From the NCBI GenBank assembly GCA_037200965.1, contig JBBCGK010000001.1, positions 384,001 through 448,000 on the forward strand: a DNA stretch of 64,000 nt. The letters run 5' to 3'. Each line of letters starts with the position of its first letter. The first letter of the stretch is position 1. Of the stretch, positions 23,452 through 41,470 are shown piece by piece. The position numbers and the translations under genes were made by a program. Source of the stretch: a bacterium (lineage in GTDB: Bacteria; Patescibacteriota; Minisyncoccia; Phycocordibacterales; Phycocordibacteraceae). The notes under the pieces were generated by a model. That model saw only the letters and a list, made by a program, of their open reading frames with translations, had not been told where the DNA came from and did no database searches.

Positions 23452-23542
23452 TACGGGTATCGTAGCATCCATTATCGAGGGCTTGTGGATATCGGGAGAA
23501 TCGGAAACTTTCGTTTTTATTGACGATACGCAGCGCAACATA

Positions 23543-23557
23543 TATGATATTATCATA
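23543..23557. promoter_or_regulatory. 15-bp perfect palindrome TATGATA-T-TATCATA, putative operator of the RHH antitoxin operon
   Basis: Seen directly; lies 20-34 nt upstream of the antitoxin ATG and overlaps -10-like TACTAT/TATAAG hexamers. Confidence 0.45.
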
Positions 23558-23576
23558 CTATAAGTTAATACCCCTT

Positions 23577-23795
23577 ATGGCCACCGTCTCCGTACCCCTC
23601 AACGCCGAGCTTGAAGAGCGTCTGGATTTCCTTGTCGCGAGCGGCGTGGGCGCGAACCGCGCGGATGTCATGCGCCGCGGGCTTGAAAACCTGGCGGAAG
23701 AAGAGGCGATCAACGCCGTACTTAAGGCCGAACGTGAAGTGGCGGGCGGCAAGATACTGCGCGGGAACGCACGCAAAGTATTGCTTGGTCCGTAG
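23577..23795 (+). CDS. ribbon-helix-helix (CopG/ParD-like) type II antitoxin
   Basis: 72 aa: MATVSVPLNAELEERLDFLVASGVGANRADVMRRGLENL..., an RHH signature. Sits immediately upstream of a RelE/ParE-like ORF. Confidence 0.65.
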   Translation: MATVSVPLNAELEERLDFLVASGVGANRADVMRRGLENLAEEEAINAVLKAEREVAGGKILRGNARKVLLGP

Positions 23796-23801
23796 TCTTC
23801 T

Positions 23802-24062
23802 ATGCAGGTCGCGTTCGCACCCCAATTCAGGCGGCAATTCAAGAAGCTGCCGAAACCTCTTCAGGAAGAAGCGCTCGAAAAGATCGAGACCTTCGGGGAT
23901 GCCGGGAACCACGCGGCGTTGCGCGTTCATAAGCTTGGCGGGAAGCTTCACGGCCGCCTGAGCTTTTCGGTCAATTATCGGTATCGGATACTGTTTTTAT
24001 GGGAAGTTCCGAATAAATCAGCAATCCTGCTCGCCATCGGCGATCACGCCGTATACGAATAA
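23802..24062 (+). CDS. RelE/ParE-family type II toxin
   Basis: 86 aa; the C-terminus LGGKLHGRLSFSVNYRYRILFLWEVPNKSAILLAIGDHAVYE matches the ParE/RelE fold signature. Confidence 0.65.
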   Translation: MQVAFAPQFRRQFKKLPKPLQEEALEKIETFGDAGNHAALRVHKLGGKLHGRLSFSVNYRYRILFLWEVPNKSAILLAIGDHAVYE

Positions 24063-24066: not shown

Positions 24067-25182
24067 TTAGGGATCCTTGTCCTTCAGAGCCGCGATGATC
24101 CTTCGCGCGCGCGCAGCCCACGTATGCGAGGCGGCGAGCGAAAGCGCTTTTACGGACTTATCTCGTGCCGCCTGGGAATCGGCAAGCGCGTCCCGTATGC
24201 CAGCCGCAAGAGCTTCGGGATCGTCAGGCGGCACGAGATACGCGCTGTCGCCTGCAAGGACTTCCCGGATCGAGGGAAGATCGGACGCGACGATCGGCGT
24301 ACCGGAAGCGATATACTCGAAGAGCTTCATGGGCGAGGTAAAGCGGGTGGAATCCTCGTCCTTCCCGGAATTCGGCAGGACAAGGATGTCCGCGGCGCGA
24401 AGATAGACCGGAACGCCCTCGTGCGGCACGTGTCCGATTATCCTGACGTTCACCCTGCTTCCCCACTTCCCCCCGAATGCCTCGATATCTTCCGGCGTGC
24501 CGCCGAGAAATATGAAAAGCGCGTCCGGAACGAGGGCGGCGGCCTCGGCAAGCGCGGCGGCGCCCTTCCTCGGATAGAGATGCCCCGCATACAGCACGAT
24601 GCGCTTGTCGCGCGGGAATCCGAGCGCGCCGCGCGCCGCCGCGCGATCCGGTACGCCGTCAAACAAGCGCTCATCGACCGCGTCGGGAGCCACGACGATT
24701 CGCTCCGGGGCGACGCCCGCAGCCGCATACGCCGTTCGCAGCCCTTCCGATATGACGACAGTGCGAAGCGCCCGGCGGGCAACGATTTTCGAGACGAACG
24801 ACGGCCGCGCATGCGCTTCAAAAACGAGTCTCTTCCCGAGAAGCAGGTACTGCGCGAGCACGAGCGCATCGCGCGAATAGATGACGTCGGCGCCGCGAAA
24901 CGCGGGAAGCCAGCGGACTTTCTCGGAAAACCAGAGTGCGGAGACCAAAAACCCGAGCGGACCGGACCGGACGAAGTCCGGCGCTTCCAGGGTCGCAACC
25001 TTGAAGGAAGGACGAATGCCGTAGTACGCGAACGGGTCGGCGGCGAGATGATTGATGCGCAAAGGGATGACGAGCTCAAGGTCGACGCCCGCTTCCGCAA
25101 GCGCTTCGCACGTCTTCATGATCTGGAGGCCGTAGGCGCGCTCGGTCGGCAGGCGCGCATTCGATATATAGAGAAGTTTCAT
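24067..25182 (-). CDS. GT4-family (GT-B) glycosyltransferase
   Basis: 371 aa with the C-terminal GT4 signature (PNSGKDEDSTRFTSPMKLFEYIASGTPIVASD). Confidence 0.8.
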   Translation of the reverse strand: MKLLYISNARLPTERAYGLQIMKTCEALAEAGVDLELVIPLRINHLAADPFAYYGIRPSFKVATLEAPDFVRSGPLGFLVSALWFSEKVRWLPAFRGADVIYSRDALVLAQYLLLGKRLVFEAHARPSFVSKIVARRALRTVVISEGLRTAYAAAGVAPERIVVAPDAVDERLFDGVPDRAAARGALGFPRDKRIVLYAGHLYPRKGAAALAEAAALVPDALFIFLGGTPEDIEAFGGKWGSRVNVRIIGHVPHEGVPVYLRAADILVLPNSGKDEDSTRFTSPMKLFEYIASGTPIVASDLPSIREVLAGDSAYLVPPDDPEALAAGIRDALADSQAARDKSVKALSLAASHTWAARARRIIAALKDKDP

Positions 25183-26237
25183 TGCGCAGTGTATGCGGCC
25201 AGTTCCGAACGTATTTCAGGTACTGACAACAGGAGTTCTTTTATCTCGTTTTTGGAGAGTCGTCGCGCATCTAACGAACCATAACCGCTCCCGCCCACAT
25301 CATCACCGCCCTGACTCTGAACGTCGGAGGAAGATCTGGCGGTTTCTTCGTCGGGCGACTCCGGAACAATTCTGTAATATTCGCCGTGATCGACGGCCCG
25401 GCGGAGTTCCTCAGCGGAAATAAGAAATTCGTCACGTCGTTCTCCCAGACGCATGCCGATGTATGCGGCGGGCGTTTTGTACGAAAATAATTCGGCGATC
25501 GCCAACGCGAGATCGGCAAGCGCTATCCCAGGTATTTTGCGAACGTATATTTCGCCCGCTGCACCGCTGGTGAGAGCGAAGAGAATGAGGTCAAGCGCTT
25601 GGTCGAGGGTCATGAAGAAGCGCGTCATCTGCGGATCGGTAATAGTAATAGGTTGGCCTTGCTTGATTCGTTCGATAAAATACGGTACGACGGAACCACG
25701 CGTATAGAGAATATTGCCGAACCGCGCAATACATACGACCGTTTTGGAATTGCGCGCGGATGCTATCGCGACGCGCTCCATTAAGGCTTTGCTCATCCCC
25801 ATCGCACTTGTCGGAGCAGGTGCCTTGTCGGTTGAAAGCACGACAAGCCGTTTTACTGCGTGACCAATCGCGCTTTGAATGACATTGTTACTTCCGAGCA
25901 CGTTAGTTTTTACGAACTCAAGCGGAAACGATTCACCGATCGGCACCTGTTTAAGCGCTGCTGCATGGAATACGTAGTCGACGCCTCGCATCGAAACATC
26001 CACCGCTTGCCGGTCGCGGATATCGCCGACAATAAAAGCAAGCCGTGGGTCACTCACGCGATTGCGCATATCAAATTGTTTTTGCTCGTCCCTGCTGAAG
26101 ATAACCACTTGCTTGGGTGCGAGCGTAAGCAGCGCTTCGGCAACTGCGGAGCCGACCGATCCGGTACCGCCGGTTATGAGTATAGTCGCGTCCTTAATTT
26201 GCTCCGCATAAGAAGAATGCAGGTTCAGATCAGACAT
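25179..26237 (-). CDS. UDP-N-acetylglucosamine 4,6-dehydratase (PseB/FlaA1/CapD family)
   Basis: ILITGGTGSVGS...LSTDKAPAPTSAMGMSKAL (Sx-K). The start is chosen at ATG 26237; the track start at 26309 would read into the IS481 left inverted repeat. ATGA overlap with the downstream GT4. Confidence 0.75.
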   Translation of the reverse strand: MSDLNLHSSYAEQIKDATILITGGTGSVGSAVAEALLTLAPKQVVIFSRDEQKQFDMRNRVSDPRLAFIVGDIRDRQAVDVSMRGVDYVFHAAALKQVPIGESFPLEFVKTNVLGSNNVIQSAIGHAVKRLVVLSTDKAPAPTSAMGMSKALMERVAIASARNSKTVVCIARFGNILYTRGSVVPYFIERIKQGQPITITDPQMTRFFMTLDQALDLILFALTSGAAGEIYVRKIPGIALADLALAIAELFSYKTPAAYIGMRLGERRDEFLISAEELRRAVDHGEYYRIVPESPDEETARSSSDVQSQGGDDVGGSGYGSLDARRLSKNEIKELLLSVPEIRSELAAYTAQ

Positions 26238-26289
26238 GGATTTGCTCAAAGTAGCAATAAATACTAAAGGTTTCAACCGTGCCTTAAGG

Positions 26290-27237
26290 TCGCACTGCAT
26301 ATCGAACACTCCCTAATACTAAGGAGGATATGCGCAAAGAACCCAGGGAAATCATCAGGAAATTGAAGAAGTCGGGAGGAAAGGTGCGCGAAACCGCACG
26401 GACACTCGGCATATCTCCGGGCACGGTGGTGTTCTGGAAGAAGCGAGCCCGGAGCATCCGGAGCCGGTTTGCGCTCTCGACGCGGCAGCTTGTCCGCAAG
26501 TCGACAAGACCGAAGCGTCTTCGCCGCAGGACGCTCTCGGGAGAGCGGGCTGAGGCGCTCTTGCGCCTGCGCGAAGAGAAAGGATACGGGGCGCGCAAGC
26601 TCAAAGTGCTGCTCGGCCTCTCCGAGCACCCGGCGACCATCCATCGCTTCCTCAAAGCGAAAGGTCATATACTGGAAGGCGCGTCATACCGACGGCCGAG
26701 ATATCAGGAGACCACGCATATGTATCTCAAGAACGTGACCGCGCCCGGGAAGCTTCAGATGGATGTGAAGTACGTGACGCCCGAGCTGTCGGGGCTCCCG
26801 CATACCCTGTATCTGTATGCCGTCATTGATATTTGGAGCCGATACAAAGCTGGCGTCATCTTCCCCGAGCTCGTGCAGGACTTCTCCATCGAGGCCCTGC
26901 GGACGGTTTCGCTGCCGTTCGTACCGGATTTCGTGCAGACCGACAACGGCCTTGAGTTCCAGAGCCGCTTCCGCGCCTTCGTGACTGGGGAACTCGGCTG
27001 GAAGCATCATTTCATCCACAAGGCGAACCCGAATGAGAACGCGGTCATCGAGCGGTCATTCCGCACCGACGAGGAGGAGTTCTTCTGGCGCTTCATGAAA
27101 AAGCCCGCTTCAATGGAGGACCTCAATGCCCAGTATCAGGCCTTTCTGCGCGAATACAACCACGAACGGCCGCACCTTGGCATCGAGCTCAAGACGCCGT
27201 ATGCTCGACTGCAAGAGTGTTCGATATGTTAGTGCGA
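26290..27237 (+). mobile_element. IS481-family-like insertion sequence (~948 bp) with 22/23-bp imperfect terminal inverted repeats and a probable 6-bp TTAAGG target-site duplication
   Basis: IRL is TCGCACTGCATATCGAACACTC (26290-26311) and IRR is GAGTGTTCGATATGTTAGTGCGA (27215-27237). Their reverse complements differ only by G vs AA. Flanking TTAAGG lies at 26284-26289 and 27240-27245. Confidence 0.7.
26330..27232 (+). CDS. DDE transposase (N-terminal HTH + rve integrase core), IS481-like
   Basis: 300 aa. The DDE triad context reads LYLYAVIDIWSR ... VQTDNGLEF ... AVIERSFRTDEEE. A canonical SD (AAGGAGG) lies 3-9 nt upstream of the ATG, unlike most host genes. Confidence 0.8.
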   Translation: MRKEPREIIRKLKKSGGKVRETARTLGISPGTVVFWKKRARSIRSRFALSTRQLVRKSTRPKRLRRRTLSGERAEALLRLREEKGYGARKLKVLLGLSEHPATIHRFLKAKGHILEGASYRRPRYQETTHMYLKNVTAPGKLQMDVKYVTPELSGLPHTLYLYAVIDIWSRYKAGVIFPELVQDFSIEALRTVSLPFVPDFVQTDNGLEFQSRFRAFVTGELGWKHHFIHKANPNENAVIERSFRTDEEEFFWRFMKKPASMEDLNAQYQAFLREYNHERPHLGIELKTPYARLQECSIC

Positions 27238-27272
27238 TATTAAGGCGTGAAAGCGTCCGTGGCTATAGCTGA

Positions 27273-28079
27273 TTACAGTTTTATTCCGAAATACGCTGCC
27301 GTAAGGAACCGCAGAATATTCCATTGGTATGCGACGCGCGTCCATTCGACCGCAAGCGGCATGCTCTTGTCGGAGCCATACCGAAAGCGATTGAAAAGAC
27401 TTTTGAGGACGACCTTGGCTATGGTCGATATCTTGGACACCGCGAGGCGCAGGAACATGCCTGTTTCCCGCGTCGCATAGAGTTTCGCGTCCATGAGCGC
27501 ATAGCGCCGGTTCTTCTCAACATCCTGTCCGCTCGCAACGAAATAGTGCCAGTGCCCCGCGAGATATCCGGCCGGATAGCGGGCTTCGTCGTACGTGATG
27601 CGCTCGTGGATAGCCTTGCGGAAGCGCGCGCCGCTCCCGCGGTTGAAAAAGCGCTTTTGCCAGCCCGGATAGTTCGAAGAATGCCCGATGAGGCGGCCGT
27701 CAAGCACGATGCGGGGCGAGATATTGTAGACGAACGTTTCCGCCGGCTGCCGCGAAGCTATGACGCGGACTTCCGATACCAGTTCCGGCGTCGCTTCCTC
27801 GTCCGAATCGATATAGAAAAACCAGTCATGCGTCGCGGCATCGAGGCACTGGTTTCGCACTCCGGCATAGTCGCGGAGCGTATTATCGGGATTCTTGAAC
27901 TCGGAGTTCTGCGCGATGATATGCGCGCCGCAGGTCCCGGCAATGGCGAGCGTCTCGTCCGTGCTGCTTCCGTCGCAGATAATGATCTCGGCGAAGTCCT
28001 TCACGGACTCGAGCGCCCTCGGCAGGTTCTTTGCCGAGTTATAGGTGAGGATAGCGGCCGTGCAGGGAATCTTTTCCAT
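27273..28079 (-). CDS. family 2 glycosyltransferase
   Basis: AAILTYNSAKNLPRALESV...ICDGSSTDET...YIDSDEE (DXD). The start is chosen at ATG 28079, giving MEKIPC. Confidence 0.7.
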   Translation of the reverse strand: MEKIPCTAAILTYNSAKNLPRALESVKDFAEIIICDGSSTDETLAIAGTCGAHIIAQNSEFKNPDNTLRDYAGVRNQCLDAATHDWFFYIDSDEEATPELVSEVRVIASRQPAETFVYNISPRIVLDGRLIGHSSNYPGWQKRFFNRGSGARFRKAIHERITYDEARYPAGYLAGHWHYFVASGQDVEKNRRYALMDAKLYATRETGMFLRLAVSKISTIAKVVLKSLFNRFRYGSDKSMPLAVEWTRVAYQWNILRFLTAAYFGIKL

Positions 28080-28080
28080 A

Positions 28081-28842
28081 TCAGAATGCTCGCACGATGC
28101 TCCGGTACCACTCGATCGCTTTGGTGGCGCGGAGCGCGAACTGCCAGAACGGCATCGGCCCGGTGATGACATTTCGCTTCAGGGCGAACAGATCGTCTCC
28201 GGGGGCTATAAGCCCCGGCTTTATCGAAAACGCGGCTGTAAAGCCCGCCTTCGCGACCGCGCGGGCGACTTCCGCCGAGTAATGCCCTCCGGGATAGGCG
28301 AAATAGCGGTATCCCTTAGGGTTCGCAATCTCGCGTGAGAGCGTCTCCGCACCGGTCGTCTCGAGCATCGCATGCGTCTTCGAGTGGTGTGCGAGCGTTA
28401 TGAGGCCGCTTGCGGCGAGCTCCGCAAGCTGCGCTTCGCCGAGCATCTTCGCTCCGGGCTTGAGATAGCTCCCCGCCGCCTCCGGCTCTGCGATGAGGAA
28501 TACCGCTGCGGACGCCTGGTACTTCCTGAGGATCGGCAGTGCGTGCGTCAGCAGGTCTTCATATCCGTCGTCGAACGTGACCGCGGCGCACTTGCGCAGC
28601 AAACTCCCTTCCCTTTTGGCATATGCGCTTATCTCGTCAAGCGCCGCGAAATGATACCCGTGCGCCTTGAGAAACCGCAGCTGGCGCTCGAACATTTCCG
28701 GGCTCGTCGAGAGTTCCCAGCCGTCGCTTGAAATCGAGTGATAGCAAAGTACCGATACCTCCCGGAAGTTGAAAAGGAAATCGGCAGCGCTGCGCGCCGC
28801 ATATAAAAAGGCATAGAGGATGTTTTTGATGAAATCTCTCAT
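28081..28842 (-). CDS. polysaccharide deacetylase (NodB/CE4) family protein
   Basis: 253 aa with the NodB motif AAVTFDDGYEDL plus HSKTH. Confidence 0.7.
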   Translation of the reverse strand: MRDFIKNILYAFLYAARSAADFLFNFREVSVLCYHSISSDGWELSTSPEMFERQLRFLKAHGYHFAALDEISAYAKREGSLLRKCAAVTFDDGYEDLLTHALPILRKYQASAAVFLIAEPEAAGSYLKPGAKMLGEAQLAELAASGLITLAHHSKTHAMLETTGAETLSREIANPKGYRYFAYPGGHYSAEVARAVAKAGFTAAFSIKPGLIAPGDDLFALKRNVITGPMPFWQFALRATKAIEWYRSIVRAF

Positions 28843-29630
28843 GCTGGCTCCGCGGCTTCGATGATAAGCATGACGTGCGGGAGGAAGGCTTGATATGGAA
28901 TACCGAATGTCCGCAGTATTCCTTTCATAAGCCGTTTGAAAACGTTCGTGCTCTTCCCTTCCTCCGGACGTATACGCCAGGACCGGGCTTCCGTCTCGGA
29001 AGCCCGGAGCATTCGCCGTACGGCGAAATAGGTGTAGAAATGGAGGCCGTTGTCCTCAAGCGGATTATGCCCCACCAGGCGCACATAGAGTCGGGCAAGC
29101 GGTAGAGGAAGATAGGAGAGACCCCAGAGGCCGGTGTGCGTTTCTTTCGGGTTCAAGCGGTTCGGGAAAGCGAGGTAGAAGACTCCCCCGGGCTTTAGAA
29201 CCCGCCGGATCTCGGAAAGGTAGCGGACGGGATCGTCGACATGCTCGATGACGCTCACGGACAGCACCGCGTCAAACGACGCGTCCGGAAACGGAAGCGT
29301 TCTGCCCTCATAGAATTGGAAATGCGCGGAGGAGCCGGAGGTTTCCGCCTCCGCGCGGGCAATTGCCACGAGCTCGTTTTCTATATCGACGCCTTCGACC
29401 GAAGCTCCGCGCTTCGCAAACGCTATGCCGATGCCGCCGTTTCCCGCCCCGGCGTCGAGCACTCGGAGACCTTCCAAAAGACCGACGCGCCGCTCGAAGT
29501 CGTCCGCGATGCCTTCCGATTGCTTCTCCTTCGTACGCCAGTCCTCGATGATCTTCTCCCGCTCCCCTTTCGAGGCCCGCGGGAAGCGCTTTTCTACATA
29601 CTTTCGCGCAATACGGTCGGTATAGGCCAT
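28839..29630 (-). CDS. class I SAM-dependent methyltransferase
   Basis: 263 aa with motif I (VLDAGAGNGGIG) and a post-I acidic stretch (VDIE...VLKPGGVFYL). ATGA overlap. Confidence 0.7.
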   Translation of the reverse strand: MAYTDRIARKYVEKRFPRASKGEREKIIEDWRTKEKQSEGIADDFERRVGLLEGLRVLDAGAGNGGIGIAFAKRGASVEGVDIENELVAIARAEAETSGSSAHFQFYEGRTLPFPDASFDAVLSVSVIEHVDDPVRYLSEIRRVLKPGGVFYLAFPNRLNPKETHTGLWGLSYLPLPLARLYVRLVGHNPLEDNGLHFYTYFAVRRMLRASETEARSWRIRPEEGKSTNVFKRLMKGILRTFGIPYQAFLPHVMLIIEAAEPA

Positions 29631-29696
29631 TGGCTTTCAGTATGAACTATCCCCTGCCCTCTGGCGACCTTGTTTTGGCCTTATTTGCTTTTTGTA

Positions 29697-30815
29697 CTAC
29701 CGATCCGAAAACAGCTTTTCGTATGCCGTAACGGCCCGCTCGATGGAATAGGCCTCGGCAGAACGGATAGCGGCAGCCTTCATCGCGGAACGGTCGCATA
29801 CGATCATATCCGAAAGACCCCCCGCGGCGGCCTCCGGCGCGTAGCCCTTGATGAACAAGCCGTTCACTCCCTCCTCGATCATCTCGTCGGGACCCGCAGT
29901 CTTGGTCGTAAGGACGGGGAGGCCGCAGGCGAGGGCTTCGGCGTGCGCGATGCCGAAGCCCTCGATAAGCGAAGTGGAGACGAAGAAATCCGCGACGGCG
30001 AAGAAGCGCGGCACGTCCTTGCGATAGCCCGTAAACCGCACGATGTCGTGAAGGCCGATACTCTCCGCGTATGCGCGTATCTTCTTCTCGTGGCTTCCGC
30101 CGCCGACGATGAGCAGGCGGTATTCGGGATTCGAACGGACGAAAAGCTTGAAACCGTCAAGGAGGAGTTTGTGATTCTTCTGCGGGATGACGCGCGAGAC
30201 GTTCAGTATGATCCTGTCTTCCGGAGCGAACCCTGTTTCTCTTCTGGTCTCTCCCGTATCATATCGGTTCATTTCGGCCCGCAGCTTTTCGATATCGATA
30301 CCATTATGAATGACGGCAAACTTCTCCCGAGATATGCCTTCCTGCCATGACGTAAAATCGGCTACGGTTTCCGAGACGGCGACGATACGCTTCGTGAGAT
30401 GCGAGAGCAGGCGGTCGAGGAAGCGTTCTTTCGCCGTCTTTCCGACGTATGTGTTGTGCTCGACGACGAACACGCGGTATCCGAAGAACGGCTTCAGGAG
30501 CCGCATGATCGTATTGCTAAAAAAGAGGTTCGCGAGAACCACATCCGGATTTATAGCGCGCAGCAGCCGATACAGTTCCCGCCACGCCCTCCAGTCGCGG
30601 ATGCCCGTAAAATGAAGTTTGTGGAGTTCGGTTCCTTCGGGAAGCGCGTCATAGAGATATTCGCGCTCGTCCTCGCCGAAGGTGAACAGCGTGAGGAGAA
30701 CGGGTTCGAAGCGGCTTCGATCGATGCGCGCGAGAAGATCGGCGATGAGCTTCTGCGCTCCGCCGATCAGGAAGTCGTTTATGACGATGAGCGCCTTGAT
30801 CCGCTTCTCCGGCAT
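29697..30815 (-). CDS. GT4-family glycosyltransferase
   Basis: A GT-B fold with the EX7E-like region LIEGFGIAHAEALACGLPVLTT. The start is chosen at ATG 30815 (MPEKRIKALIV) to avoid overlap with the upstream gene. Confidence 0.75.
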   Translation of the reverse strand: MPEKRIKALIVINDFLIGGAQKLIADLLARIDRSRFEPVLLTLFTFGEDEREYLYDALPEGTELHKLHFTGIRDWRAWRELYRLLRAINPDVVLANLFFSNTIMRLLKPFFGYRVFVVEHNTYVGKTAKERFLDRLLSHLTKRIVAVSETVADFTSWQEGISREKFAVIHNGIDIEKLRAEMNRYDTGETRRETGFAPEDRIILNVSRVIPQKNHKLLLDGFKLFVRSNPEYRLLIVGGGSHEKKIRAYAESIGLHDIVRFTGYRKDVPRFFAVADFFVSTSLIEGFGIAHAEALACGLPVLTTKTAGPDEMIEEGVNGLFIKGYAPEAAAGGLSDMIVCDRSAMKAAAIRSAEAYSIERAVTAYEKLFSDR

Positions 30816-30817
30816 GG

Positions 30818-31450
30818 CTAGGGCGCGCGCATCTTGAAAATGAACCCGAGCGGATAGCGTTCGCGTATCCCGGGGCGAAGCCGGAGGAATAGAGCATCCA
30901 GAAGCGCATACGGGAGGTACAGGGGCGGCCGGAGGAAACACGGCACCGAAAGCACGAGTGCGTTGAAATTCGACGTGAACGGGCCGCCGCCGATCGATCG
31001 TATCTCGAGCGAGGCGAATTCCGCCTCGCCAAACATCCGCGCGAGCGCTTCCTTGGTATAACGGAAATAATCGTGCGGGTCGGGATGGTACTGGATGAGA
31101 AACGGGACGAAGCCTATAAGCGTGCCGCCGGGCTTGAGGATCCGGCGCATCTCTTGTATGAGGAACCGATAGTTATAAACATGCTCGAGCACGTTCGCGC
31201 AGAGCACCGTATCGACGCTCGCGTCGGGAAACGGCAAGGCGTCCCGTTCGAAGTCGATGCCGGACATGGAACCGTCGACCGGGGTAACGCCCGTTACGCC
31301 GGATATATCAAAATATTCGAAGTAATCGGGCTTGTGCCCGCCGCCGACATCCACAACCGCGCCCGTAAGGGGCCGGCCTTCAAAACCCTGGTTCATGCGG
31401 ATGCGCAGCAAACTCTGTCCGGCATAAAGCTTTTTGAGCGTGAATATCAT
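30818..31450 (-). CDS. class I SAM-dependent methyltransferase
   Basis: 210 aa: VVDVGGGHK...LCANVLEHV...LKPGGTLIGF. Confidence 0.7.
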   Translation of the reverse strand: MIFTLKKLYAGQSLLRIRMNQGFEGRPLTGAVVDVGGGHKPDYFEYFDISGVTGVTPVDGSMSGIDFERDALPFPDASVDTVLCANVLEHVYNYRFLIQEMRRILKPGGTLIGFVPFLIQYHPDPHDYFRYTKEALARMFGEAEFASLEIRSIGGGPFTSNFNALVLSVPCFLRPPLYLPYALLDALFLRLRPGIRERYPLGFIFKMRAP

Positions 31451-32481
31451 GTTCGGTTCAGTTCTACCACGAGACGGTCCATAAGCGTTGCGAGGCCGTG
31501 CTCCCGCACGACGACGGCCCGCTCGAGGCTGCCGAGCGCGCGGTATTCCTCGCCCGAGAGCTTAAAAAGCTTCAGAATGGCTTCCGCGAGCGCCTTGGGA
31601 TCGTTCTCGGACACGATCCACTCGGCGGGCACGATGCCTTCGAACGCCGCGCTCGTAACCACGACCGGCGTCTCGCACGCCATGGATTCGAACGCTGTTT
31701 TGTCGAAGTACCCGTTCGCAGCGAGATTCAAGGCAACCCCGTGCGCGCTATAGAGGTTCGGCGTCTCCTCGTTCCGGCGCGGTCCGAGAAACGCGAGAGC
31801 GTTCGCTTCGACGAGGTCGGCAAAGTCGGCGCGAAGCTTCTCGCCATATGCGGGATCGAGTTCCGGACCAACGAACGTGAGAACGGCCGCCGTGCCGCTT
31901 GAACGGAGAATTCTGAGCGCTTCAAGCGCGATATGCGCGCGCTTGCTCGGCATGATGCGGCCCTGCATATAGAGCGCATAGCGGTTCTTCGAGACCGGAC
32001 GCGGCGCGAAAAGCTCCGTGTCGATGCCAACCGGCATCCGCCGGGCCTTTCCCAGAAGCGCGGGCGCGGCGTAGGGCGACGTATAGAACACCTTCCGCGC
32101 AAGAAACGCGGCGAGCTTGAAGCGCGCGTCGCGCTGCGGATGGTTGTACCAGAGAGCCGCGTGTTTCCTGAATACCCGCCAGAACAGTCCGCCGAGAATC
32201 ATATATTCGGGATTCATGTGCACGAAGACCGTATCGTAGCGGCCGCGCAGCTTCCATATGAGCATTTTGAAGCGGTATGCATACGCAAGGCGGCTTCGCG
32301 CGCCCTGTTCTTTTCCGAGAGAACATACCCGCACGTTGTCCGGAAGCGCGTGCGCTCCTTCACGCAGACAGATCACCTCGATGCTTTCGCATCTTCCCGC
32401 GAGTTCTTCAAGCCAATGATGGAAGAAGCCGAGCACCGGATCCTCGCGGTCGACCGTTTGCGTGGCGATAAGGAGTTTCAT
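31447..32481 (-). CDS. GT4-family glycosyltransferase
   Basis: 344 aa, GT-B fold; ATGA overlaps on both sides. Confidence 0.7.
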   Translation of the reverse strand: MKLLIATQTVDREDPVLGFFHHWLEELAGRCESIEVICLREGAHALPDNVRVCSLGKEQGARSRLAYAYRFKMLIWKLRGRYDTVFVHMNPEYMILGGLFWRVFRKHAALWYNHPQRDARFKLAAFLARKVFYTSPYAAPALLGKARRMPVGIDTELFAPRPVSKNRYALYMQGRIMPSKRAHIALEALRILRSSGTAAVLTFVGPELDPAYGEKLRADFADLVEANALAFLGPRRNEETPNLYSAHGVALNLAANGYFDKTAFESMACETPVVVTSAAFEGIVPAEWIVSENDPKALAEAILKLFKLSGEEYRALGSLERAVVVREHGLATLMDRLVVELNRT

Positions 32482-33614
32482 GAGAGCGTGCGGGCGAGGT
32501 CGTTTGCTATGAGTGTCGGCTGGTCCGTGTACGCGGCAAGATGTTCCCTGGCGGCGACTTCGGCGCTCCGCACCATGAGTTGCCTGGCTTGCGCGTCCTC
32601 TATCATGCCGACCATGGCTATCGAAAGCGCTGCGGGATCGGCGACCGGCACCGAAAGTACGTCGCGATATCCCCGGAACACTTCCCCGACGATGCCGACA
32701 TCGGTCGTGATGATCGGCACCCGGGCGAGCGCGGCTTCGATGAGCGTAAGGCCGTAACCTTCATACGCGCTCGCTTGTATAAACGCTTGCGCGCTTTGCA
32801 GAAGACCCCGGGCGTCGGCGCGTTCGCCAAGGAAGAGCACGTGCTTTTCAAGGCCCCATTTATGCACGTACCGCTCGAGCTTGCGGCGCTCGCGTCCCCT
32901 GCCGACAAGCATGACGCCCGCTTGCGGATACTGCCCGTGCACGCGCGCAAGCGCGTCTATTATGTCTTCTATGCGCTTTTCGGGCTCAAGACGCCCGATC
33001 GCCACGAATGTGAACTTAAAGTCGTGCGGCGGAAGTGGTACCGGGGCGGATATCTCAAGCGGCGTCGCGATCGGAATAACGGTAGGCTCCTTGATGCGCG
33101 TGCCGTAGCGGAGCGTAAGCGAGTCCTTGATGCGCTTTGAGACCGCACGGATGCCGTCGGCTTTGGGAAGTACCTGGTCGGCAAAGCGGAGGCGGAAACG
33201 GTTCAAAAACGGCATGCGAACTTTGAGCGAGTGGAGGTTACCGTTTCTCGTAAACCAGGGGGAAAGGAAGTCGGTATGTATCTGTATATAAAGTTTCGCG
33301 TTCGTGCCTTTCACCGCCCAGAGCGCGATAAGGCCGTACTCGAACGGATCCTGCGCGGCAACGACATCGATGTTATAGGCAGTGATAAGCGCCCGGACTT
33401 TGGGCGGAAGAAACGCGAGTATAAGAAGTCGGGGCGTCCGGACCGGATGCAGGAAGAGCGTACCTTCCTGCTCTTCGCGCGCGCCCCGGGCGGCCCGGGA
33501 AATGATGTGCAGCTCGCCGCCCTTGATCGCGGCTGCATACGCGCGCATGCGCGCCCTCGAAGCGCTTCCGGGATTGAAAATCGATGGATCGTTCGAGACG
33601 AAAAGGACGTTCAT
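32478..33614 (-). CDS. GT4-family glycosyltransferase
   Basis: 378 aa; C-terminal domain signature ...ASAYEGYGLTLIEAALARVPIITTDVG. Confidence 0.75.
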   Translation of the reverse strand: MNVLFVSNDPSIFNPGSASRARMRAYAAAIKGGELHIISRAARGAREEQEGTLFLHPVRTPRLLILAFLPPKVRALITAYNIDVVAAQDPFEYGLIALWAVKGTNAKLYIQIHTDFLSPWFTRNGNLHSLKVRMPFLNRFRLRFADQVLPKADGIRAVSKRIKDSLTLRYGTRIKEPTVIPIATPLEISAPVPLPPHDFKFTFVAIGRLEPEKRIEDIIDALARVHGQYPQAGVMLVGRGRERRKLERYVHKWGLEKHVLFLGERADARGLLQSAQAFIQASAYEGYGLTLIEAALARVPIITTDVGIVGEVFRGYRDVLSVPVADPAALSIAMVGMIEDAQARQLMVRSAEVAAREHLAAYTDQPTLIANDLARTLS

Positions 33615-34708
33615 ACGAGGGATTTTAGAAATGTGGCGGTTCTAGGAATCAGAGCCTCGACGGAAAAGCGTTTCGCGGATTCGCGCGCTTCCCGCGAAAG
33701 GCGCGCAGCAAGCTCCTTGTCGGAAAGAATGCGCCTGAGGGCTTCGACAAGCGCATCCGCATCGCCCGGCGGCGCGAGAAGCCCGTTCTCTCCGTTGCGT
33801 ATGAGTTCGCCGTTTCCGCCGACATCGGTCGTGACGACCGGAACGCCGAGCGCGAGCGCTTCGATAAGCAGATGCGAGAGGCCTTCGTATGAGGTATTGA
33901 GCACGAACGCGTCCGCGCTTTCCATGACCGTAAGCGTATCGGCGTGCGAGAGCCGTCCTGTAAGCACTGCCCGACTCCCGAGTTTCTTCGCGTGCGTCCC
34001 GATGTTCGCGTGTTCGGGCCCGTCGCCGACGATCGCGAGCGATACGCTCGGAACCGACTCCGATACCGCTGCGACCGCGTCTATCGTGCCTAGCATCCCC
34101 TTCCACGGTACCAGGCGGCCGACGGATACGACAAGAGGCCGCGAAAGCGCGGCCACCGATTCGTGCACCCTGCCCGGTTTTTCTGACTGCATGGCGTTAT
34201 AGATAACTTCGATTTTCTCTGCGGGGATGCCCCAAATCGCTGTAACGTCCTTGAGGTATGTGCTCGGGACGATCACGCGGACCGCGTTTTTCGCGACCCT
34301 GGTTTGGATCCATCTAAGTGCGCCAACTGGGAATGGAACCGTCTTCGTCCGGACGAACGTATCCAAATCGGCCACGATTCCAAACCGCTGCCTCCCCTGC
34401 TCCCAGGCATAGTCGCCGACGATCTTTACGACAAACGGCTTCCCCGCCCGTTTCGCGGCCTTCATCGCCGGAAAGCCGACCGAGACCGGGTCAAGCGCGA
34501 GTATCGCGTCCGCTTCCCGCGCTGCCTTAAGAACGCGGCGATAGTAGGCGAAATGCCGGATAAGCTTCGGCAGATGCCGTACATCCGAGAACTTCACCAC
34601 CTCGACCTCGATTCCCTGTCCAGGAAAGCCCTCGACAAGGAGTTTGGCGTAGGTAGCTGGCCCCCCGGACTCGGGCGGGTATAAAGGAGTCGCTATGACG
34701 AGCCGCAT
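33611..34708 (-). CDS. GT4-family glycosyltransferase
   Basis: 365 aa; ...TSYEGLSHLLIEALALGVPVVTTDVGG. Confidence 0.75.
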   Translation of the reverse strand: MRLVIATPLYPPESGGPATYAKLLVEGFPGQGIEVEVVKFSDVRHLPKLIRHFAYYRRVLKAAREADAILALDPVSVGFPAMKAAKRAGKPFVVKIVGDYAWEQGRQRFGIVADLDTFVRTKTVPFPVGALRWIQTRVAKNAVRVIVPSTYLKDVTAIWGIPAEKIEVIYNAMQSEKPGRVHESVAALSRPLVVSVGRLVPWKGMLGTIDAVAAVSESVPSVSLAIVGDGPEHANIGTHAKKLGSRAVLTGRLSHADTLTVMESADAFVLNTSYEGLSHLLIEALALGVPVVTTDVGGNGELIRNGENGLLAPPGDADALVEALRRILSDKELAARLSREARESAKRFSVEALIPRTATFLKSLV

Positions 34709-34717
34709 GGGGCCATT

Positions 34718-35929
34718 CTAGCGGCTTTCAAGCATCCCGTCGAAGAGCGCTTTCATGTTCTGCGCGATGAGGTCCCAATCGTACTTCTCAAAGGCGAGGG
34801 CTTTTGCCGTCGAGAGGACTTCTTTTACCTTGTCTGGCCGCGAGAGTATATCTTTCACCGCAAGCGCAATCTGCTCCGGGTTGTTCTTATCGACCGCCCA
34901 CCCGGTCGTCGGCTTATCGGGATTGCGCTTTTCGTCGAACAGGAAGTCCCCGATGCCGCCTTCCTGCGTCGCTATTACCGGAAGCTCCGCCGCCATCGCT
35001 TCGACGAACGAGTTGCCCATGCCTTCCGAACGCGACGGCCTGATGAAAATATCGCACGCCTTGAGCGCGAGCGGCATTTCCGCATGGCCAATCTGTCCGA
35101 GGAAATGCGTACGTTCCCCGACGCCGGTAGTTTCTGCGAGTTTCTTGAGGACTTCTTCGTCAGGACCGATTCCGTAGATTATAAAATGCAGGTTCTCCGG
35201 GAGAAGCGCGAGTGCGCGTATGACGTCGTCTAGGGCGTTCTTGTGCACCAGCCTTGAGGTCGTGACCAGAAATATGTCGCCCGGTTTCTTGCCAAGCTTC
35301 TCACGCATTGCCTGTAATTCGCCAGCTGGATATAGATGCGAAAAATGTGCGGCATTCACCGCGTTTGGAATAACCTCCGCGGGGCCTTTAAAGCCCATAC
35401 GCCTGCCCCATGTCAGCAGGAAGTTTGAGATGGGTTGGAGCACGTCCGCCTTCGTGAAGCCCCACCTAAAAAGCGGCCATACGGGCCTCGCGATCTTCTC
35501 GATGTGCTCTGGCGGGTCCCCTTCCTGAAGCGTCAGGAGATATTTCACTTCGGGATGAAATGTCTTGAAGAGTCCGGCGGGAATACCGGTCGCATGTGCC
35601 ATCATCGCCCAGACGCCGTCAAAGTGGTGCGCTCGATGAAGCTTGAGCGCTGCGAAGAAAGCTCCAAACTGATACCAATGTTTGAGATAGTGGAGTGGAT
35701 ACCGTTTCAAGTCGTTCATCGATGGATTCAGACGCGCAGCACCGATACGGTGCACGACGACGTTCCTTATACGTTCTGTTCTCGGCAAGCCAGAGTCGAC
35801 ACGCAGTGTCAGCACATGAAACTCGAGTTGTTCGGGATCGATACGATCCGTTATTTCCTTGATAGCGACTTCCGCCCCACCTATGAATCGAGGATAGTAA
35901 TTAAGAGAAAATATGAGGATTTTCCTCAT
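34718..35929 (-). CDS. GT4-family glycosyltransferase
   Basis: About 403 aa; ...RPSRSEGMGNSFVEAMAAELPVIAT. The start is chosen at ATG 35929 (MRKILIFSLNYYPRFIGGAEV), in an ATGA overlap with the upstream ORF stop. Confidence 0.75.
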   Translation of the reverse strand: MRKILIFSLNYYPRFIGGAEVAIKEITDRIDPEQLEFHVLTLRVDSGLPRTERIRNVVVHRIGAARLNPSMNDLKRYPLHYLKHWYQFGAFFAALKLHRAHHFDGVWAMMAHATGIPAGLFKTFHPEVKYLLTLQEGDPPEHIEKIARPVWPLFRWGFTKADVLQPISNFLLTWGRRMGFKGPAEVIPNAVNAAHFSHLYPAGELQAMREKLGKKPGDIFLVTTSRLVHKNALDDVIRALALLPENLHFIIYGIGPDEEVLKKLAETTGVGERTHFLGQIGHAEMPLALKACDIFIRPSRSEGMGNSFVEAMAAELPVIATQEGGIGDFLFDEKRNPDKPTTGWAVDKNNPEQIALAVKDILSRPDKVKEVLSTAKALAFEKYDWDLIAQNMKALFDGMLESR

Positions 35930-37371
35930 AGCGATGTGTGCGCAGCCCTTTGGAGTATTTGCGAGTATGCGAAGCGCATTGCATTCGCGAACGAGTCGCC
36001 CGAGCCAAGTAACCTTTGTGCCCGCATGCGCGAGGCAAGCGAAGCGAGACGCCTGCCCTGCTCCGCATTTGAAGCATAAACCTGATCGGCGGCGCCAATG
36101 AACATACGCAGGAAAAGGCGGACATACCAAGATATATCCTGATCGGCGAGCGTGATGAGAAGCGGTACTGGCGACTCCTTACGAACTGAGAGGGCCGCAA
36201 GCGCGCCGTAACTTGCCATGAGTGACCATGAAAACAGGTACCGATGTTCTCGCACGAGCCTTTTCCCCGTACGCGCACCCAGAAACGGAAGAAGGTATTT
36301 ATCGAAGGAGTTTCCAAAACCGATACGATGGATAGTCGCGTTCGGCACCGGACAAACCGCATGGCGCGCATGCGAAACGTAATGCGTTGTAACGATATCG
36401 AAATGCAGCTCTGGCATCTGACGCATGAGCTCGCAAAGCGCGTCTTCAGCGGGTCCCGAGACCGGATGAAACGTCGTCGTAAAGACGAGCACGCGTTTTT
36501 CAGGTTCCGCGGCAGCATTCGTCCGCACCGTTTCCTTTCGTACGTATTCCTTAAGTGCACGAGAAGGACTCCACCCGAGCGAGCGCGTCTTGCCTGTATC
36601 AATGTCCGCCTGCGCGCGGTTGCCAGCGCGTTCCGGAAGCATGATGAGCGTACTGCTATAGAGCTTCGCGAGGTCGAGGATGGATATGCGGTCGTCGCTC
36701 CCGATCCCGTATCCGTCGCCATTTCCTTTCTCGCCGACAAGTATGAGGCCGTCGACAATATCTTCGACATGCGTGAAAATACGTTCCTGCGTTCCGGGAG
36801 CGACGACCGTGAGCGGCAAACCGCGTATGGCCTGCTGGCGGAATATTTCAACGACGGTGCCGTACGCATCCCCGCGCTCGCCGGGACCGTATACGTTATA
36901 GAAATAGGCGATCGCGTAGGAAAGCTCAAACCAAGTTCCGTAGTTGACGATCAGCTCCGTCATACTCGCCTTTGACCAGGCGTAAGGACTTTGGTCACGT
37001 CCGAGACCACTATCACCGAACTTGGTGGAACTGCCAGCATAGACCAGTTTTGCGCGGCGGCGGCGTACAAATTCGAGTACGGCAAACGTGCCGAACTGAT
37101 TCAAGTCCCAAACTTGCTCAATATCTTCAAAGCTTTTCTCGACACGGGAGTATTCCCCAAGATGATAGACAATGTCCGGAGTCTCGGGAATGAGCTTTTC
37201 TATATCCTTCGTATGTCCCTCCCTATAGTCGACGCCTGGAACATGATTCTCGCGGGAACCCGTAAAATAATTGTCGAGAGAAATGACCTTGTGCCCGTCC
37301 TTTATGAGCCGTTCGCACAGGTGTGAGCCGATAAAGCCCGCACCGCCGGTCACGAGGATAGTCTTTTGCAT
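35926..37371 (-). CDS. NAD-dependent epimerase/dehydratase (SDR, UDP-sugar 4-epimerase/decarboxylase-like) fused to a C-terminal GT-B N-terminal-half-like domain
   Basis: The N-terminus is ILVTGGAGFIGSHL...YAWSK (YxxxK). The C-terminal ~190 aa (VLVFTTTFHPVSGPAEDALCELMRQMPELHFDIVTT...) resembles a Glyco_trans_4 N-terminal domain with no catalytic C-terminal domain. Confidence 0.6.
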   Translation of the reverse strand: MQKTILVTGGAGFIGSHLCERLIKDGHKVISLDNYFTGSRENHVPGVDYREGHTKDIEKLIPETPDIVYHLGEYSRVEKSFEDIEQVWDLNQFGTFAVLEFVRRRRAKLVYAGSSTKFGDSGLGRDQSPYAWSKASMTELIVNYGTWFELSYAIAYFYNVYGPGERGDAYGTVVEIFRQQAIRGLPLTVVAPGTQERIFTHVEDIVDGLILVGEKGNGDGYGIGSDDRISILDLAKLYSSTLIMLPERAGNRAQADIDTGKTRSLGWSPSRALKEYVRKETVRTNAAAEPEKRVLVFTTTFHPVSGPAEDALCELMRQMPELHFDIVTTHYVSHARHAVCPVPNATIHRIGFGNSFDKYLLPFLGARTGKRLVREHRYLFSWSLMASYGALAALSVRKESPVPLLITLADQDISWYVRLFLRMFIGAADQVYASNAEQGRRLASLASRMRAQRLLGSGDSFANAMRFAYSQILQRAAHTSL

Positions 37372-37414
37372 GCCTTGAGGATAAGGGTTTCGTGAAGGAA
37401 TACAAGGCGAAAGC

Positions 37415-37456
37415 CGCCCCCGCCAGAAGCAACCTCGGCTGCTTCTGGCGGGGGCG
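37415..37456. terminator. 16-bp perfect-stem hairpin (CGCCCCCGCCAGAAGC / GCTTCTGGCGGGGGCG) between the T4CP-like gene and the glycan operon
   Basis: Perfect inverted repeat with a 10-nt loop; the minus-strand reading is followed by GCTTTCGCCTTGTATT. Confidence 0.5.
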
Positions 37457-37553
37457 ATTACTCTTTCCTTGGCATAGCGGACTTTGGTTACGATCCAACA
37501 ATCTTTGTCCGACGTTCCTTAGTACTCTCCGTTCGGGGAAAAAGTTTCAAACA

Positions 37554-39518: not shown

Positions 39519-39588
39519 GCGCCTATTATACACTTTCCAACGCAACGGCCGCGCCTAAAGACGCGGTCGTTGCTTATTTTCGTTTTTT

Positions 39589-39816
39589 CTACCCTACGCT
39601 ACTGATTTCTTCAGAGCCGCCTGGCGCCGGAGCGGGAGCGGCGGCGGAAGCGCGTATCTCCGCGCGTACCCTTGATTGACGCAGCGAGAGGCCCGCGACC
39701 ACTATGGCGATGCCAAGGATCGGTAGAAACCATGAGAGCCACGAAACCGGAAGGCCCGAAAAAGGCGAAAGGAAAACGAGGACGCCAAGAAGTATAAGGG
39801 TACTTACGCGGGACAT
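39589..39816 (-). CDS. small 2-TM membrane protein encoded immediately upstream of the T4CP-like ATPase
   Basis: 75 aa: MSRVSTLILLGVLVFLSPFSGLPVSWLSWFLPILGIAIVVAGLSL... Confidence 0.35.
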   Translation of the reverse strand: MSRVSTLILLGVLVFLSPFSGLPVSWLSWFLPILGIAIVVAGLSLRQSRVRAEIRASAAAPAPAPGGSEEISSVG

Positions 39817-39828
39817 GGCCAGATTCTA

Positions 39829-40512
39829 TCAAGGACTCACGATGACGACAAATTCTCCCCGGATCTCGCCCGGAAACGCCGCGAAATGCGCCCGGCACTG
39901 GGTAGCGGTGCCGACGACGAGCGACTCGTAGAGTTTCGTGAGCTCGCGGCAAACGGCGACCTTCCGATTGGCGTCGAGGACCTCGACAAGAGAATCGAGC
40001 GCTTTCTCGATACGGTGCGGGGATTCATAAAAAACGACAGCGCGCCGGCTTGTTCCGATTTCCTTAAAGAGCGTCTGCCGCCCTTTTTTATGCGGAAGGA
40101 ATCCGAGGAACGTGAACTCCGCAGCCGGGAGTCCCGCGATCGAGAGTGCGGCAGTAAGGGCCGAGGCGCCAGGGATGGCCTCGATCTTTACCGATTCCCC
40201 GAGCCGCTCGCGCGTTTCTCTTACCAGCTCGTTTCCGGGGTCCGAGATGCCCGGCGTCCCCGCATCGGTCACGAGCGCGACGCGCTTTCCTTCCCCAAGA
40301 AGCGCGAAGATCTTCGAGGCAGCCTTGGGGCCGCTTCGCGCATGGAAAATAAGAAGCGGCTTCGAGATTTCATAGCGCGCCAAGAGCTTCGCCGTCACGC
40401 GCGTGTCCTCGCACGCTATCGCGTCGGCCTGCCTGAGCGTCTCGAGCGCCCGCAGCGTGATGTCACCCAGGTTGCCTATGGGCGTTGCCACAACGGAAAG
40501 AGTCCCGAGCAT
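39829..40512 (-). CDS. rsmI: 16S rRNA (cytidine1402-2'-O)-methyltransferase RsmI
   Basis: 227 aa, tetrapyrrole-methylase fold: LSVVATPIGNLGDITLRALETL...AIACEDTRVT...TDAGTPGISDPG. Confidence 0.85.
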   Translation of the reverse strand: MLGTLSVVATPIGNLGDITLRALETLRQADAIACEDTRVTAKLLARYEISKPLLIFHARSGPKAASKIFALLGEGKRVALVTDAGTPGISDPGNELVRETRERLGESVKIEAIPGASALTAALSIAGLPAAEFTFLGFLPHKKGRQTLFKEIGTSRRAVVFYESPHRIEKALDSLVEVLDANRKVAVCRELTKLYESLVVGTATQCRAHFAAFPGEIRGEFVVIVSP

Positions 40513-41458: not shown

Positions 41459-41468
41459 TGATCCGGGG
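41459..41468. repeat. 10-bp direct repeat TGATCCGGGG (right flank of the IS1595-like element)
   Basis: See 40607-40616. Confidence 0.5.
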
Positions 41469-41470
41469 AC

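Follow-up and report, generated by a model that had tools for sequence, protein, structure and literature searches.

Which product is assembled by a 13-kb, single-strand run of glycosyltransferase genes in a bacterium that is unlikely to make lipopolysaccharide (LPS)? The question is raised by the operon at positions 24067–37371 of a 64,000-nucleotide stretch of DNA (hereafter the window; positions 384,001–448,000 of contig JBBCGK010000001.1 in assembly GCA_037200965.1). As judged from its closest genomic relatives, which are metagenome-assembled genomes (MAGs) of Patescibacteria/Parcubacteria, the host is a Parcubacteria-type member of the Patescibacteria, or candidate phyla radiation (CPR), and these relatives also bear out the view that LPS is not to be expected. 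An original prediction, made from the window sequence, had proposed a co-directional glycan-assembly operon with a pseudaminic- or legionaminic-acid-type dehydratase and, together with genes elsewhere in the window, most of a Wzx/Wzy-type pathway. We consider it likely that the enzymes of the operon assemble a CPR surface heteroglycan in the cytoplasm and modify its sugars, and that the glycan would be carried on a lipid and exported by a Wzx/Wzy-type route; the gene inventory and the type of dehydratase need revision.

The outer bounds of the predicted cluster proved to be exact, the first gene starting at 37371 and the last one stopping at 24067, and the interval holds twelve intact minus-strand open reading frames (ORFs) with no internal stops. 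The features of the interval and its upstream border are given below, where conserved core and variable module refer to the comparison with eight related loci, summarized as a matrix of best-match presence and identity. GT4 and GT2 are glycosyltransferase families 4 and 2, SDR is short-chain dehydrogenase/reductase, SAM is S-adenosylmethionine, CE4 is carbohydrate esterase family 4, IS is insertion sequence, UDP-GlcNAc is UDP-N-acetylglucosamine, and aa stands for amino acids.

37415–37456 (no strand): 17-bp GC-rich hairpin from the terminator-like scan, in the 182-bp spacer between a VirD4-like ATPase gene and the first gene
35926–37371 (minus): first gene, SDR fused to half a GT-B domain, 481 aa
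34718–35929 (minus): GT4, 403 aa, conserved core; Glycos_transf_1 119.8 bits plus Glyco_transf_4; EX7E motif at 302–310
33611–34708 (minus): GT4, 365 aa, conserved core; Glycos_transf_1 131.8 bits; EX7E at 275–283; in seven of the eight related loci
32478–33614 (minus): GT4, 378 aa, conserved core; Glycos_transf_1 92.6 bits plus Glyco_transf_4; EX7E at 285–293
31447–32481 (minus): GT4-type, 344 aa, conserved core; Glyco_trans_1_4 50.2 bits, Glycos_transf_1 46 bits
30818–31450 (minus): SAM-dependent methyltransferase, 210 aa, variable module; Methyltransf_11 46.4 bits; glycine-rich VVDVGGG
29697–30815 (minus): GT4, 372 aa, variable module; Glycos_transf_1 131 bits; EX7E at 285–293; also called at 372 aa on Logan contig L001
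28839–29630 (minus): SAM-dependent methyltransferase, 263 aa, variable module; Methyltransf_11 86.3 bits; VLDAGAGNG
28081–28842 (minus): CE4 polysaccharide deacetylase, 253 aa; Polysacc_deac_1 (PF01522) 64 bits against a cutoff of 23.1
27273–28079 (minus): soluble GT2, 268 aa; Glycos_transf_2 59.2 bits; also called at 268 aa on L001
26282–27245 (plus): IS481-family-like IS, 964 bp; transposase ORF 26330–27232, inverted repeats and target duplication
25179–26237 (minus): CapE/FnlA/WbjB-type UDP-GlcNAc 4,6-dehydratase/5-epimerase, 352 aa; Polysacc_synt_2 (PF02719) 298.5 bits
24067–25182 (minus): last gene, GT4, 371 aa; Glyco_trans_1_4 80.7 bits, Glycos_transf_1 78.1 bits; ATGA-coupled to the dehydratase gene

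All twelve proteins were assigned to their families above the Pfam gathering score. The expected ATGA linkage was found at six of the eleven gene junctions as 4-bp overlaps, including those of the 403-aa GT4 gene with the upstream SDR gene and of the 378-aa GT4 gene; four other junctions measure 1, 2, 9 and 66 bp, the last of these, ahead of the 263-aa methyltransferase, being the one native spacer of any size. At the remaining junction, the GT2 and dehydratase genes stand 963 bp apart, with the IS in between. The GC content is even across the cluster (0.56–0.60), and the independent contig L001 (SRR28211700) is 100% identical to window 27215–40267, with agreeing gene calls. The gene order is kept in the eight related loci, which places the cluster far beyond a chance arrangement. 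A simple hydropathy scan detected transmembrane segments or signal peptides in none of the twelve proteins, which fits a glycan that is assembled on the cytoplasmic side of the membrane and meets the CE4 enzyme before it is exported. Promoter and terminator scans of the operon stayed at background (7 against 6.1 and 19 against 16.5 expected) except for the hairpin at 37415–37456, which is the probable terminator of the upstream ATPase gene and would thus mark the 5′ limit of the operon. Four further ORFs were rejected as genes: the minus-strand frames at 26273–26668 and 26684–27019 lie antisense inside the IS transposase and have no Pfam match, 35901–36929 is an alternative frame within the SDR gene with no matches, and the minus-strand frame at 23565–23951 (128 aa, no matches) lies opposite a small toxin-antitoxin-like pair.

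The census of enzymes differs in part from the original prediction. One GT2, one CE4 deacetylase, one SDR “epimerase” and one UDP-GlcNAc 4,6-dehydratase are present as proposed. Instead of seven GT4s, there are six complete ones (403, 365, 378, 344, 372 and 371 aa) and a half GT4 fused to the C-terminus of the SDR, which may be the source of the seventh count. The donor domain of all six complete proteins scores 46–132 bits with Glycos_transf_1 against a cutoff of 26.4. Pfam also matches the N-terminal GT4 domain in five of them, the 344-aa protein showing the C-terminal donor domain only, and four (403, 365, 378 and 372 aa) carry a canonical EX7E motif at the expected position. Two methyltransferases (210 and 263 aa), not three, lie inside the interval, and two more are found elsewhere in the window at 6681–7319 and 10856–11464. 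Nor do all genes lie on the minus strand: the prediction had missed the 964-bp IS with its plus-strand transposase. In the CE4 protein, the catalytic motifs VTFDDG and HSKTH (H-S/T-x-x-H) are intact; its top NCBIfam matches are PgaB (84 bits, cutoff 322) and IcaB (59 bits, cutoff 248). With two methyltransferases and one motif-intact deacetylase, a heavily O-methylated, partly N-deacetylated heteroglycan, as predicted originally, is still a reasonable expectation.

Comparison with the eight related loci separates a conserved from a variable part. The SDR, fused or unfused, and the 403-, 365-, 378- and 344-aa GT4s occur in six to eight of the loci, mostly in the order of the window. Orthologues of the 403-aa GT4 (39–71% identity), the 378-aa GT4 and the 344-aa GT4-type protein (37–44% identity) are each found in seven. 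The other seven operon genes are present in only two or three loci, and elsewhere their place is taken by Methyltransf_21, GT47, GT9, radical-SAM or CofD genes. The 210-aa methyltransferase was found in three of the eight loci, the 263-aa methyltransferase is matched at 65–69% identity in L002 and L042, the GT2 is 58% identical in L002 and 41% in L042, and the 372-aa GT4 has its sole clear orthologue in L002 (55%), where the 371-aa GT4 is matched at 58%. L002, a Candidatus Paceibacterota MAG and the best genomic relative of the central 372-aa GT4, has counterparts of eleven of the twelve operon genes, with the SDR unfused and no dehydratase orthologue. At the other end of the range, L039 holds the SDR fusion and one GT4 only, and a weaker SDR–GT4_403–GT4_365 order recurs in Saccharibacteria MAGs (L025, L027 and L008). 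In L035, L037, L039, L041, L043 and L044, the core adjoins a VirD4/TrwB-like ATPase gene, 53–67% identical where the full gene is covered, often with a surface-protein gene bearing LTD and/or PKD domains between the two. Such a locus, which stays at one place in the chromosome and keeps its inner part while exchanging its outer part, shows the pattern usual for O-antigen and capsule loci.

Two observations made alongside this comparison concern the same loci. The ATPase gene directly upstream of the operon (window 37554–39545) encodes a soluble, 663-aa VirD4/TrwB/TraD-like protein that is kept directly upstream of the glycan locus in five related loci, with no further type IV secretion genes seen in its neighborhood. 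Two related metagenomic contigs, L037 (17784–21415) and L038 (15346–18977), carry GT9 (heptosyltransferase-family) genes in the variable half of the locus, where they are unexpected for presumed LPS-less organisms.

The first gene of the core encodes two domains:

36517–37371, approximate (minus): residues 1 to about 285, extended-SDR nucleotide-sugar epimerase/dehydratase-like domain
35929–36504, approximate (minus): residues about 290–481, GT-B N-terminal half domain; donor-binding half absent

The SDR part resembles UDP-hexose/N-acetylhexosamine (HexNAc) 4-epimerases, Pal and UXS about equally. The identity of the tail emerged from several comparisons. BLAST against the window proteins matched it to the N-terminus of the 403-aa GT4 (E 2e-4), as did a hidden Markov model of the tail (E 9e-7), and profile–profile alignment of the tail family with the family of that GT4 by hhalign gave 98.7% probability (E 1.7e-16) over GT4 columns 3–153. 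An AlphaFold model of the tail (pLDDT 86) matched MshA, GlgM, BshA and PimB′ in Foldseek, each over less than half of the target (TM-score about 0.31 by target and 0.54–0.59 by query), which fits one half of a GT-B fold. The tail has neither a Glycos_transf_1 match nor an EX7E motif and is therefore not a transferase by itself. Nor is it a product of decay, because the full 480-aa architecture is kept in more than 120 protein clusters (90% identity) at 63–71% identity and invariant positions are as numerous in the tail as in the SDR part. Against a 50%-identity library, the tail profile reached E ≤ 1e-30 with 17 representatives and E ≤ 1e-10 with 298; in the list of 150 matches, most of those weaker than about 1e-26 were the N-termini of ordinary GT4s of about 370–400 aa. 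On these profile matches, the SDR/half-GT4 fusion is a tight, lineage-restricted clade. Relatives also display other states, namely an unfused SDR of about 284 aa (L041 and L002) and an SDR joined to a whole GT4 of 692 aa in total (L042, 5597–7675). A further fusion state is an 876-aa representative (P0246), of which the tail profile matches two distinct stretches. In our reading, the half domain is a duplicated acceptor-side half of a GT4 and would serve as a dock by which the SDR attaches to the acceptor or the GT4 machinery.

The dehydratase bears most directly on the sugar composition. Its start was set at the ATG at 26237, which yields a protein identical to a 352-aa NCBI entry; the start of the longest ORF, at 26309, lies within the left inverted repeat of the IS. 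The best NCBIfam model is FnlA (TIGR04130, 328.1 bits, cutoff 730); PseB (TIGR03589, cutoff 407.75) scores 277.8 bits. Among solved structures, the Staphylococcus aureus CapE (3VVB) scores 312 bits over residues 14–351, including the C-terminal extension, and the Acinetobacter baumannii UDP-GlcNAc 4,6-dehydratase/5-epimerase (4J2O) 302 bits, compared with 218 bits over residues 12–293 only for the Helicobacter pylori PseB (2GN4). The motifs STDKA at 135, with the Asp-Lys pair, and MGMSK at 146 align with the matching CapE residues, so that Met occupies the position of the SDR catalytic Tyr as in CapE, whereas PseB and ordinary SDRs have Tyr (YxxxK). The enzyme thus shares with CapE (Cap5E/Cap8E; 3VVB, 3W1V, 4G5H) and 4J2O the full-length alignment, STDKA, the Met of MGxSK and the C-terminal extension, and differs in scoring 328 bits against the FnlA equivalog cutoff of 730, which indicates a diverged CPR clade. 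Its nearest relatives are 60–65% identical, the named ones coming from Parcubacteria bacterium C7867-004, “Patescibacteria group bacterium”, Wolfebacteria and Yanofskybacteria. By these scores and motifs, the dehydratase is a diverged CPR member of the CapE/FnlA/WbjB group, a group that opens routes to 2-acetamido-2,6-dideoxy-L-hexoses. A GT4 gene directly follows the dehydratase gene in the window, L041 and L042, which makes the 371-aa GT4 a reasonable candidate for transferring the dehydratase-derived sugar.

The IS in front of the dehydratase gene encodes a 300-aa transposase with HTH_Tnp_1 and rve/rve_3 domains (Pfam), whose best NCBIfam match is IS481 (NF033577, 145.4 bits, below the cutoff of 224), with IS3 second (95.5 bits). 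Imperfect terminal inverted repeats of about 31 nt were read at 26282–26311 and 27215–27245, and a 4-bp target duplication, CGTG, directly flanks them at 26278–26281 and 27246–27249. With the IS481 family, the IS shares its size of about 1 kb, its single transposase ORF with an N-terminal helix-turn-helix ahead of an rve DDE domain, the inverted repeats at its ends and the shortness of its target duplication; the score below the curated cutoff makes it a distant member. Once the IS is taken away, 67 bp remain between the end of the GT2 gene and the start codon of the dehydratase gene, so the recent insertion left the coding sequence undisrupted. Contig L001 breaks off at window 27215 and thus covers exactly the last 31 nt of the IS. 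Logan contigs presumably come from a k=31 graph; if so, such a break is as expected for an IS that is repeated or polymorphic in that sample, and is separate evidence for an IS boundary at 27245. The left repeat was not found a second time within the window. The IS is oriented against the operon and might lower the expression of the dehydratase and last GT4 genes; a terminator scan revealed no minus-strand terminator-like sites inside it, and read-through to these last two genes is therefore possible. A second mobile element, an IS1595-family transposase gene (DDE_Tnp_IS1595 plus zinc ribbon; 40620–41477), lies about 3 kb upstream of the operon.

The genes that might initiate and export the glycan are located elsewhere in the window. 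The initiator, flippase and Wzy_C genes were found as the original prediction had named them:

59945–61315 (minus): large polyprenyl-phosphate glycosyl-1-phosphate transferase (PGT), 456 aa, candidate initiator; Bac_transf 165.6 bits, TIGR03025 264.5 (cutoff 295.6)
9581–10852 (plus): candidate Wzx/MOP flippase, 423 aa; Polysacc_synt 62.5 bits
3421–5607 (minus): membrane protein with Wzy_C (65 bits) and TPR, 728 aa; candidate polymerase, ligase or O-oligosaccharyltransferase
5623–6678: PMT_2 GT-C, adjoining the Wzy_C gene
7644–8465 (plus): GtrB-like GT2, 107.6 bits, near the Wzy_C gene

A PMT_2 GT-C and a GtrB-like GT2 form a pair typical of extracytoplasmic glycan decoration. Orthologues of the Wzx protein are embedded in the cluster in L002 (65%) and lie next to it in L042 (60%). 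The latter locus, from Parcubacteria bacterium C7867-004 (GCA_001189075.1, LFCN01000004.1), is the most instructive relative. It has the block CE4–methyltransferase–GT2–dehydratase (60%)–GT4, orthologues of GT4_365, GT4_378 and GT4_344, and, directly after the dehydratase–GT4 pair, Wzx, PMT_2, a GtrB-like GT2 (60%), GtrA and Wzy_C/TPR (47%). Unlike the window, L042 joins the SDR to a complete GT4, lacks the IS and keeps the export genes contiguous with the cluster, whereas a toxin cassette of the RHS type intervenes in the window. This synteny makes a Wzx/Wzy-type export route plausible.

Such a pathway could proceed as follows. The PGT would prime the unit on a polyprenyl-phosphate carrier, on which the SDR fusion and the four conserved GT4s probably lay down a lineage-conserved inner oligosaccharide. 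The variable GT4, the GT2 and the last GT4 would then extend the unit, for which the CapE-like enzyme would supply one residue from UDP-GlcNAc, probably a 2-acetamido-2,6-dideoxy-L-hexose or its 4-keto precursor. The two SAM-dependent enzymes would methylate the glycan, and the CE4 enzyme would N-deacetylate it. Wzx might then flip the product and the Wzy_C/TPR protein handle it on the other side.

Several points weigh against a heteroglycan exported in this way. The PGT, Wzx and Wzy_C genes lie 13–35 kb from the operon in the window, and they are linked to it by synteny in relatives only. All matches of the GT4s and methyltransferases to curated NCBIfam equivalogs fall far below cutoff, so that no specificity can be assigned to them, and the methyltransferases could use non-sugar substrates. 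Neither a 4-reductase (CapF/WbjC/FnlB/WbvR) nor a 2-epimerase (CapG/WbjD/FnlC) was recognized among the window ORFs scanned, nor do reductase, 2-epimerase or pseudaminic-/legionaminic-acid (Pse/Leg) genes adjoin the dehydratase orthologues in L041 and L042. The Wzy_C family includes O-oligosaccharyltransferases of the PglL/PilO type, and the same enzymes might instead build a short lipid-linked oligosaccharide that the Wzy_C/TPR protein moves en bloc to a surface protein, such as a pilin or an S-layer-like, LTD or PKD protein. An LTD and/or PKD surface-protein gene directly upstream of the SDR fusion in five related loci agrees with this idea, as does the lack of any chain-length regulator seen in the window, and pilin glycosylation has been predicted in Saccharibacteria (bioRxiv 10.1101/2024.11.25.624915). 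However, no LTD or PKD gene occupies this position in the window, seven transferases would make a long unit, though not an unprecedented one, and the sequence of the Wzy_C protein does not separate the roles of polymerase, ligase and oligosaccharyltransferase. We regard a protein-linked glycan as unlikely, albeit worth keeping in mind.

A membrane glycolipid, lipoglycan or small-molecule glycoside, built directly on its acceptor without undecaprenyl phosphate or Wzx/Wzy, seems quite improbable to us. It would account for BshA, MshA and monoglucosyl-diacylglycerol synthase being the best NCBIfam neighbors of several GT4s, for the SDR and GT4 core pair standing alone in L039 with no other glycan genes adjoining, and for the half GT-B domain, which could serve as an acceptor- or membrane-docking module. 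Yet those NCBIfam scores fall short of the curated cutoffs by a factor of three to five, the deacetylase belongs to CE4 and not to the LmbE type of the bacillithiol and mycothiol pathways, and in relatives the cluster is found together with Wzx, PGT and Wzy_C genes. Very improbable indeed is the PseB-like dehydratase of the original prediction, which would feed a nonulosonic acid of the pseudaminic or legionaminic type into the glycan. PseB and CapE are both Polysacc_synt_2 proteins and 5-inverting UDP-GlcNAc 4,6-dehydratases, and the PseB model and structure still score 278 and 218 bits, but the CapE/FnlA-type structures exceed the PseB structure by about 90 bits and are aligned as far as the C-terminal end, the PseB model score is below the trusted cutoff of 408, and Met stands where PseB has its catalytic Tyr. 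The window ORFs scanned include no PseC-, PseH-, PseG-, PseI- or PseF-like domains and no DegT aminotransferase, NeuB-type synthase or CMP-transferase; such Pse-type domains are likewise absent beside the orthologues in L041 and L042. Two other pathways were considered and rejected: poly-N-acetylglucosamine-like synthesis (PgaB/IcaB scores far below cutoff, a soluble GT2 and no processive membrane GT2 synthase) and a bacillithiol- or mycothiol-like pathway (BshA/MshA matches three to five times below cutoff, wrong deacetylase family). For an anti-phage “GT4-conflict” system, the PF20706 matches are much weaker than the generic GT4 matches on the same residues.

A surface heteroglycan with lipid-carried assembly thus remains our preferred reading, and it places the operon beside well-known loci. 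Wzx/Wzy O-antigen, capsule and secondary cell-wall loci, such as S. aureus cap5/cap8 and Pseudomonas aeruginosa O11 wbj, share with it a single-strand block of GT4/GT2 and nucleotide-sugar genes, a first enzyme of the CapE/WbjB/FnlA type, a genome that also encodes PGT, Wzx and Wzy_C-family proteins, gene content that is partly conserved and partly variable among relatives, and disruption by IS elements, which is common there. Unlike in cap5/cap8 and O11 wbj-type loci, the host is a monoderm-type CPR bacterium with a contig of 960,259 bp, no CapF/CapG (WbjC/WbjD) was recognized in the window, initiation and export genes are scattered with no chain-length regulator in sight, and the first gene encodes an SDR with a half GT4. 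The locus is an ordinary polysaccharide gene cluster, familiar in kind although its lineage has been little studied. Its points of moderate interest are the core/variable organization across the related CPR loci examined, the SDR/half-GT4 fusion and the recent IS ahead of the dehydratase gene.

Experimental work on how CPR/Patescibacteria make their glycans is scarce. Our literature searches did not find a locus type of this kind described, and a 2024 preprint on pili called glycosylation in Saccharibacteria unexplored (bioRxiv 10.1101/2024.11.25.624915). Because CPR bacteria spend their lives on the cells of a host, their surface glycans may be among the factors that determine host range and susceptibility to phages. 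The locus maps out a conserved and a variable part, a candidate 6-deoxy-L-HexNAc step and a widespread SDR/half-GT4 fusion. One could speculate further, on what we hold to be doubtful ground, that the core beside the VirD4-like ATPase makes an envelope glycoconjugate peculiar to CPR bacteria, such as one that replaces teichoic acids or a pilin or surface-protein glycan, with the half-GT domain tethering the SDR and an IS-switched, strain-variable outer part setting host or phage recognition in episymbiosis. If true, the half-GT domain would be a new way to tether a nucleotide-sugar enzyme to an acceptor or assembly complex.

The region between the operon and the Wzx and Wzy_C genes contains a plus-strand pair resembling ribbon-helix-helix (RHH) and RelE proteins, an RHS protein gene, a stretch of 40% GC, a LamG gene and a putative secreted-protein gene. 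The pair (23577–24062, plus), which converges on the 3′ end of the operon, consists of a 72-aa ORF resembling an RHH antitoxin by eye, with no Pfam match, and an 86-aa HigB/RelE-like ORF (E 6.5e-4, below cutoff); it is possibly a toxin-antitoxin module. The RHS/SpvB/FG-GAP protein (15547–23556, minus) has 2669 aa, and downstream of it the 40%-GC stretch (about 14.0–15.5 kb) carries three hydrophobic ORFs of 69, 111 and 177 aa, so the interval 13900–23556 looks like a polymorphic-toxin cassette with immunity genes. It is plausible that this RHS cassette split a once-contiguous glycan locus.

Further out, peptidoglycan and glycan genes are interleaved. Two Mur-ligase genes flank genes for a beta-lactamase-family protein (PF00144) and a class IV aminotransferase of the D-amino-acid type (41746–46272), and MurB (2384–3424) and FtsW (62478–63614) lie at the window edges. 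The minus-strand 16S rRNA gene is split into 49773–50828 and 51562–52084 by an insert of about 733 nt, which contains a LAGLIDADG_2 ORF (50731–51474) and a weak group I intron match (50721–50893); a 16S insert encoding a LAGLIDADG protein is a frequent CPR trait. A second, LAGLIDADG_1 ORF (48939–49505) is located between the 16S 3′ end and tRNA-Ile(GAT) (48237–48310). No 23S gene follows; a PrcB_C gene comes next, and the order LAGLIDADG–PrcB_C–Mur ligases is also found in L035 and L036.

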